Assembly: GCF_964194025.1 (NCBI RefSeq)
Contig: NC_134474.1
Span: 60,264,001-60,328,000 of the forward strand
Source of the DNA: Convolutriloba macropyga
Lineage: Eukaryota
Length of the DNA: 64,000 nt
Direction: 5' to 3'
The position numbers were made by a program, and so were the translations under genes. Shown in pieces: positions 30,565 through 30,919 of the stretch; positions within the stretch are counted from its first letter, which is position 1; the number at the start of each line of letters is the position of its first letter. The notes below the pieces were generated by a model. That model made no database searches, was not told where the DNA came from, and saw only the letters and a program-made list of their open reading frames with translations.

Positions 30565-30635
30565 AGCAATTGGCGCAGTGAGAGCCTGCTGGGCTCATAA
30601 CTCAGAGGTCAGTAGATTGAAACTACCTCTTGCTA
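30565..30635 (+). tRNA. tRNA-iMet(CAT)-like gene or pseudogene inside the Polinton
   Basis: agcaattggcgcagtgagagcctgctgggctCATaactcagaggtcagtagattgaaactacctcttgcta aligns along its whole length with the eukaryotic initiator tRNA (A1:U72, A-box TGGCGCAG, anticodon arm CTGGG-CTCATAA-CTCAG, initiator-type T loop GATTGAAA versus GATCGAAA). The acceptor 5' strand is slightly shortened. A TTTT run lies at 30664-30667. Confidence 0.8.
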
Positions 30636-30919
30636 ATCTGGCATTGTCATAGTACTAGTGGACTTTTATGCGCTTGGAAAACTGGTTAATAAAAGAAAAA
30701 AATTCAATTAAAATTATCAAAATAACAGACAGAGTATAAAATAAGCACAAGCAAATACAAAATAAATCAAACATTACAATGATGATAGTACAAACTGAAA
30801 GAGTATCAAAATACATTTAACCGAGTGGTTAATAAAGTCGACAACAAAAATTTGCGTAACTATCGAAAAAATCAGGTATTTAGAAAAAAATTACTAGCGA
30901 TTTTATTGGACTTCGACTT

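Follow-up and report, generated by a model that had tools for sequence, protein, structure and literature searches.

The window, as we call the whole 64,000-nt stretch of Convolutriloba macropyga DNA analysed here, holds an apparent Polinton with a sequence resembling an initiator tRNA gene just inside one of its ends, and this locus raises the question whether an animal Polinton carries such a gene as part of its cargo and, if so, in what capacity. The first-pass annotation had pointed out a 71-nt tRNA-iMet-like sequence and had left it between cargo of the family and a chance insertion in this copy.

The window element and its tRNA-derived sequence

This is an old, rearranged element, and almost every core gene contains stops or frameshifts (Table 1). 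Its younger relatives encode a protease, capsid-like ORFs, an rve integrase, an A32-like ATPase and a family B polymerase, and the elements are bounded by TIRs with AGTAGT...ACTACT termini, the (AGT)2 motif matching that published for Mavericks (PMC8097293). The TSD of 6 bp is exact in seven of eight elements and agrees in five of six bases in the eighth, and it was found in 3/3 of a further set, these counts excluding the rearranged window copy. The adenain-like protease matched PF00770 below the cut-off in family A, to which the window element belongs (E 0.003), and above it in the family-C homologue (1.6e-6). The 1449-aa polymerase ORF of family A gave no PF03175 or PDB match; it aligns with the family-C protein at 26% over 230 aa (E 1e-12), and the latter matches PF03175 with an E value of 5e-16. 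No Pfam match was obtained for the major capsid ORFs; Atlas feature matches of 0.96–0.98 provide a lead, as 24% of members in the matched clusters carry DJR-like/Capsid_N. Judged by these sequence features, the window element is a Polinton.

Table 1. Features of the window element (positions in the window)
Feature	Position	Strand	Remarks
Left TIR, AGTAGT terminus through ~29-bp subterminal repeats	29751..30564	+	
tRNA-iMet-derived gene, decayed copy	30565..30635	+	one-base deletion, four broken pairs
28-nt trailer common to family A, then T4	30636..30667	+	T4 is a predicted Pol III terminator
Adenain-like protease remnant	30946..31347	-	2 stops; convergent with tRNA
Major capsid protein remnant	31663..32960	-	
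Small basic ORF and putative minor capsid remnants	33056..34052	-	labels presumed from Polinton gene order
rve integrase remnant	34118..34992	-	PF00665, E 2e-13 (family A protein)
A32-like packaging ATPase remnant	35358..36298	-	PF04665, E 7e-5 (family A protein)
Internal tandem duplication of 33336-37105	37104..40846		95% identical
Family B DNA polymerase remnant	44717..48831	+	26% to family-C polymerase, itself a PF03175 match
Right TIR	49027..49758	-	without tRNA
Second, duplicated polymerase 3' part and right TIR ending at 53860	50431..53860		without tRNA

The inverted repeat of the window runs about 357 bp past both AGTAGT termini (29394-29750 and 49759-50120), and on the right this extension is followed by a partial TIR and by the second polymerase 3' part with its TIR. 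Between the tRNA and the protease stop, at about 30820-30920 of the window and likewise in families A, B and D, lies an inverted repeat that is conserved and places AATAAA on each strand; it may serve as a poly(A) signal in both directions. Two accessory ORFs of 155 and 134 aa are common to families A, B and C (L035:4714-5619); they have no Pfam match, and presumably represent DEDD/Maelstrom-like and viral phospholipase-like domains. Of 33 ORFs scanned for domains, none matched a TBP family. Families A and C differ strongly in their polymerases, which also occupy different positions (L132:6335-8422 and L036:889-5238), a divergence resembling that of the two polymerase groups of nematode Polintons (bioRxiv 10.1101/2023.08.22.554363).

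The tRNA-derived sequence begins where the array of subterminal repeats stops on its inner side, the arms of the inverted repeat ending at 30565-30567, and aligns end to end, on the plus strand, with the whole Rfam RF00005 model. The CAT anticodon (30596-30598), the A1:U72 pair and the initiator-type T loop noted by the first-pass annotation are all seen in this alignment, and the TTTT is the T4 run at 30664-30667. The right-hand TIR copies in the window have no tRNA counterpart, as had also been claimed; a BLAST search with the host tRNA matched the window at 30571-30636 only. The location given earlier, abutting the inner edge of the left TIR, pointing inward and converging on the protease, is correct for the window, but as a general arrangement it belongs to one lineage only. 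The copy scores 16.9 bits against RF00005 (E 0.8), below the gathering score of 29; no tRNA is predicted here by ARAGORN, nor by Rfam at the gathering level, and the folding z is -1.61. In addition to the defects listed in Table 1, one invariant T-loop position is altered and one of the three G-C pairs of the anticodon stem is G-U. The sequence is identical to a younger copy at 65 of 72 positions and has A73. Contigs from four public runs of one study, possibly made from the source sample, span the locus with 0-1 differences. From its sequence the window copy is a decayed tRNA-iMet gene: the origin proposed for it stood, and its standing as an intact gene did not. Since this copy is weak alone, the weight of the finding rests on its relatives.

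Presence of the tRNA across the family

A search with the window segment gave 520 candidates, of which 40 were scored and 30 loci kept. ARAGORN called tRNA-Met(CAT) in 28 of these 30 segment-picked loci, and all 20 relatives tested passed the Rfam gathering score with 50.7-62.1 bits. Because picking by the tRNA segment itself is circular, the search was repeated with the protease alone (3054 candidates, 150 scored). Among the top 30 protease-picked copies 29 carry the tRNA, in the same place between TIR and protease and about 390 nt from the protease stop; the one copy without it is a second protease, part of an internal duplication. Further protease matches at 87-92% have the tRNA in 9/9 cases, three of which are too decayed for ARAGORN. 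The tRNA is thus cargo found family-wide and not a one-off insertion, which settles the choice left by the first-pass annotation; copies lacking the tRNA at this position, which would have spoken for chance, did not turn up in this protease-picked set apart from that duplicated protease.

Exact patterns were used to count copies. Element-type acceptor-stem patterns occur at 339 and 288 places, and of the first 30 of the 288 matches 29 have a protease within 1.5 kb, the 30th lying in a Polinton end. The host-type pattern occurs at 51 places; prefix or flank assigns 16 of these to elements and leaves about 35 as host-type, and 25 were inspected. An anticodon-arm pattern occurs at 409 places, the first 100 of which include 4 host genes already seen and 27 otherwise unassignable places, each of these 27 with Polinton-type flanks. 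Counted by exact pattern, element-type copies number at least 339 and host-type genes about 35, so that element copies outnumber host initiator tRNA genes about tenfold. A host tandem array at G000:C7:7.41-7.44 Mb (L064-L074) is built of a unit of about 706 bp with a tRNA-iMet and, on the opposite strand, a degenerate tRNA-iMet.

Position and orientation in other Polinton lineages

In family B, whose protease is 76-84% identical to that of family A, the tRNA is inverted behind the protease and has other flanks, and an element-type 15-mer, matched by hand, lies about 5 kb away in 16 of 18 ATPase-picked places on contigs C1-C5. Family C is far more distant from family A (protease 28%, ATPase 48%, integrase 52%). 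Here the tRNA occurs as variants near the protease-distal end, in 4 of 20 ATPase-picked ends and not in the other 16, and 11 stretches at the other end have none; 5/5 family-C tRNA matches pass the RF00005 gathering score. Lineage D is without polymerase, and an A-like module takes the polymerase place. In a sister group the tRNA is missing at the corresponding end in 8 of 11 protease matches at 83-84%. The tRNA points inward and is convergent in A and D, outward in tandem in B and outward and divergent in C1, and in C2 it lies inside both TIRs. No isotype other than iMet was found inside elements by ARAGORN in protein-picked stretches; Leu, Pro and unknown tRNAs given by relaxed ARAGORN in family-C ends were not confirmed by Rfam. 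The tRNA is thus recurrent, subterminal, free in orientation and dispensable, and since some lineages do without it, it is an accessory gene.

The alleles form a mosaic, with A5:U68 shared by A, B, D and one C copy, and C25 shared by B and C, a pattern that one or two captures together with exchange of end modules would explain.

Several individual elements are rearranged. The family-C elements L214/L226/L215, L216/L227/L217 and L218/L219 have TIRs of 1.7-2 kb with an outward tRNA in each and 6-bp TSDs; they lie at C4:32.96-32.98, C4:63.99-64.01 and C5:17.77-17.79 Mb (G000), and the two with interior fetched gave no polymerase match. In the polymerase-less family-B elements L136:7627-7698, L143, L145 and L170 the polymerase end is swapped for a family-A-like module consisting of tRNA, trailer and protease 3' region, and L136/L137/L109 has one tRNA near each end. 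Tandem inverted or direct repeats of end modules (TIR and tRNA, sometimes with protease) are present in L034:5154-7266, L058 and L120, and in L007/L034 the TSD matches the outermost end only. The end of one family-C element (L183:3284-3465) lies 100 bp downstream from a tRNA-Ser(TGA) gene of the host that scores 64 bits with Rfam; this lone example may point to a route of capture.

Allele comparison and secondary structure

In order to compare alleles we used 129 non-redundant copies (74 A, 14 B, 8 C1, 28 C2 and 5 D), excluding four indel copies (L001, L118, L168 and L193) and 51 non-element matches, and called an allele shared when 3 or more copies, and 10% or more of a lineage, had it, thresholds of our own choosing. 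In Fisher tests, which treat related copies as independent events and with alleles polarised on today's host gene, pairing and invariant positions are kept by 18 of 20 lineage-shared alleles versus 42 of 125 rare changes (p 2e-6); the corresponding values are 14/15 versus 33/93 outside the A and B boxes (p 2e-5) and 8/10 versus 21/77 at paired sites (p 0.002). The two structure-breaking shared alleles are each found in 3 of 28 C2 copies. The comparison with the host tRNA-iMet that had been suggested for compensatory stem changes yielded one, a two-sided change at 5:68, and six further pairs are altered on one side and unbroken. In nine single natural copies all stem positions are paired, the four unpaired cells being those of the window copy.

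Eukaryotic tRNA-iMet is distinguished by CAU, A1:U72, A54/A60 and the lack of position 17, and all of these are retained in the nine natural representatives. Over all copies, the CAT anticodon is kept in 125 of 129, and A1 is lost in 3 of 28 C2 copies. Three G-C pairs close the anticodon stem of the eukaryotic initiator; they are kept in most lineages, one of them being a wobble pair in 10 of 74 family-A copies. Runs of T follow the tRNA at +5 to +29 in lineages A, B and C, the first T4 of family A being at +29; the first T4 of lineage D comes only at +299.

Lineages A2 and D, which have a common trailer, are identical at 71 of 72 tRNA positions and at 206 of the next 300 nt; the flank divergence of A and D predicts about 22 differences per 72 nt, and 1-3 are observed. 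In protease-picked copies, post-insertion singletons per site amount to 0.167 in the tRNA, 0.111 in the spacer and 0.106 at protease third positions, a difference that is not significant. As private changes are no rarer in the tRNA, the constraint would act on replicating lineages and not on inserted copies. A lower mismatch rate in the tRNA than downstream within lineage A1 (0.9% versus 2.5%) was dropped as a sign of constraint, picking by the tRNA having biased it. Taken as a whole the alleles suggest that the tRNA has probably been selected as a folded RNA.

The discriminator base

All 25 host-like copies have A at base 73. The base is G in 64 of 74 family-A copies, C in 26 of 28 C2 copies and T in 8/8 C1 copies; by lineage, A73 is kept in A2, B and D and not in A1 (G), C1 (T) and C2 (C). 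Table 1 of PMC9976931 lists A73 as the eukaryotic acceptor-end determinant for Met, and E. coli data there indicate that anticodon-driven charging may tolerate changes of N73. The variation would mean either that charging tolerates the change or that charging is not the property selected.

Discussion

Small capsid-encoding dsDNA elements with tRNA genes, as found here, are known from protists, where Polinton-like viruses and virophages gave 558 Rfam matches, among them seven tRNA-His in one cluster and three tRNA-Met rows, from Polarella glacialis and a Chlorella virophage (PMC12220804, in its accessible parts). The hosts there are protists and the tRNAs mostly elongator types, read as codon compensation; in the same parts of that source the Met rows are not typed as initiator, no selection test is described and the Table S12 rows include none for Opisthokonta. 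Our elements share with animal Polintons, Mavericks and adintoviruses the (AGT)2 termini, the 6-bp TSD, accessory regions beside the TIRs, and the integrase, ATPase, protease, capsid and polymerase (PMC8097293, PMC8502044, bioRxiv 10.1101/2023.08.22.554363), but the accessory cargo of animal Polintons and adintoviruses is published as ORFs in these sources, and here it is a tRNA. Neither the vertebrate Maverick paper (PMC8097293) nor Polinton preprints including bioRxiv 10.1101/2023.08.22.554363 use the word tRNA in their main texts, and in the accessible parts of PMC8502044 it appears once, in a legend that deals with non-PolB MELD viruses from non-animal datasets. In the literature searched, whose scope lay outside Repbase, subscription journals and bioRxiv supplements, there was no report of tRNA genes in animal Polintons, and tRNA-iMet in such elements appears to be new. 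Phages and giant viruses also carry tRNA genes as virus-borne cargo of patchy distribution (cited in PMC12220804); unlike theirs, the gene described here sits in an integrated animal element of 17-20 kb, is of one isotype across lineages, and has element copies about tenfold the host genes. Viral contigs yielded no relative by ATPase, alignment or tRNA pattern; metagenome contigs yielded 3 loci, whose length of 1.1-1.6 kb was insufficient to show context, and a search with the ATPase gave 2247 homologues without genomic context.

Adenovirus VA RNA and the tRNA-like TMERs of gammaherpesviruses are RNAs of animal DNA viruses made by Pol III from internal promoters. The Polinton tRNA is likewise borne by an animal DNA virus lineage and predicted to be transcribed by Pol III from an internal promoter, but it is an almost canonical initiator tRNA that differs from the host gene by 4-9 changes, and it appears to have no long dsRNA stem; the first 40 trailer bases contain no stable hairpin (-7.2 to 0 kcal/mol), the 299-nt read-through of lineage D lying outside this fold.

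The copy number (339, 288 and 409 exact matches) could be that of a dispersed tRNA-derived SINE inserted into a Polinton. Polinton-type flanks at 30/30 and 27/27 inspected non-host matches, with no SINE body, tail or TSD of its own, make this exceedingly improbable; for the sampled loci it is refuted, and the earlier remark that no SINE body or poly-A tail follows the tRNA stands. It is also improbable, if less so, that host tRNA genes were acquired by adjacent insertion and ride along neutrally, their conservation reflecting recent repeated capture or gene conversion. Such an origin accords with the element ending beside tRNA-Ser, with the amplification of lineages that lack the tRNA, and with inserted tRNAs decaying no slower than their flanks (difference not significant); it accords poorly with iMet being the sole isotype inside elements (ARAGORN, protein-picked stretches), with lineage alleles of which most are not seen in host-like copies (only that at position 16 is), and with the shortfall from about 22 expected differences to 1-3.

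Two other roles are in our estimate unlikely, to about the same degree. The gene could act as DNA: occupancy by TFIIIC/Pol III would set up a boundary, or a site free of nucleosomes, that protects the terminal origin and promoters against host silencing. Barriers made by tRNA genes tolerate either orientation, and the Polinton tRNA is always subterminal, in any orientation and with any base at 73; against this stand the constraint outside the A and B boxes, the compensatory acceptor-stem pair and the usual presence of the tRNA at one end only, and subterminal DNA may simply be the sole room for cargo. Alternatively the product could be a tRNA-shaped decoy that is processed and binds or distracts a host factor (a stress kinase, a tRNA-cleaving defence or a synthetase) as a VA-type counter-defence, a role compatible with a conserved fold and anticodon, with a discriminator that takes all four bases across lineages at a Met determinant, and with several lineage changes at surface positions 16, 20, 33 and 73. 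Uncharged tRNA would be expected to activate GCN2, which counts against this decoy role. Lineages A2, B and D, with A73 retained, seem chargeable, and the possible tolerance of N73 changes, drawn from E. coli data (PMC9976931), further weakens the argument from base 73. A decoy for iMet-primed LTR retroelements found no support, the matching primer-binding 12-mer occurring 32 times versus 52 for the control.

We tentatively favour the reading that the Polinton iMet tRNA is selected Pol III cargo which would top up the initiator-tRNA pool. Among the readings as folded RNA, supply of initiator tRNA seems to us the most direct, if still short of probable, because the tRNA retains CAU, A1:U72, A54/A60 and the lack of position 17, T-runs follow it in A, B and C, and in yeast a phenotype of low ternary complex is relieved by additional initiator-tRNA genes (PMC5404910). 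Counting against supply are the loss of A73 in A1, C1 and C2, the wobble pair in some family-A copies, the lost A1 and the two structure-breaking alleles in some C2 copies, the distant T4 of lineage D and the dispensability of the gene. On this supply reading a host initiator tRNA would have been captured by the elements once or twice and spread between distant Polinton lineages via recombination of end modules. Selection would act during element replication and end once a copy is inserted. Host RNA polymerase III would transcribe the tRNA from active elements, and the extra initiator tRNA may serve translation of element genes. A bolder and doubtful extension, drawn by analogy, is that an initiator tRNA borne by a virus, exchanged among distant lineages and with its discriminator retuned, might be a Pol III counter-measure to host translational shut-off and as such an analogue of VA RNA; as elements hold about ten copies for each host gene, the host initiator-tRNA pool may also be reshaped.

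For Convolutriloba macropyga, tRNA gene counts are dominated by element-borne copies, and the element tRNAs supply naturally occurring variation at the discriminator, a position at which this tRNA is otherwise invariant. The lineage-diagnostic alleles make cheap tests possible. Animal Polintons have so far been described through their proteins, and here a non-coding gene is probably under purifying selection for RNA structure. A tRNA selected for its structure would point to an active phase dependent on host translation, and such dependence bears on whether Polintons behave as viruses.
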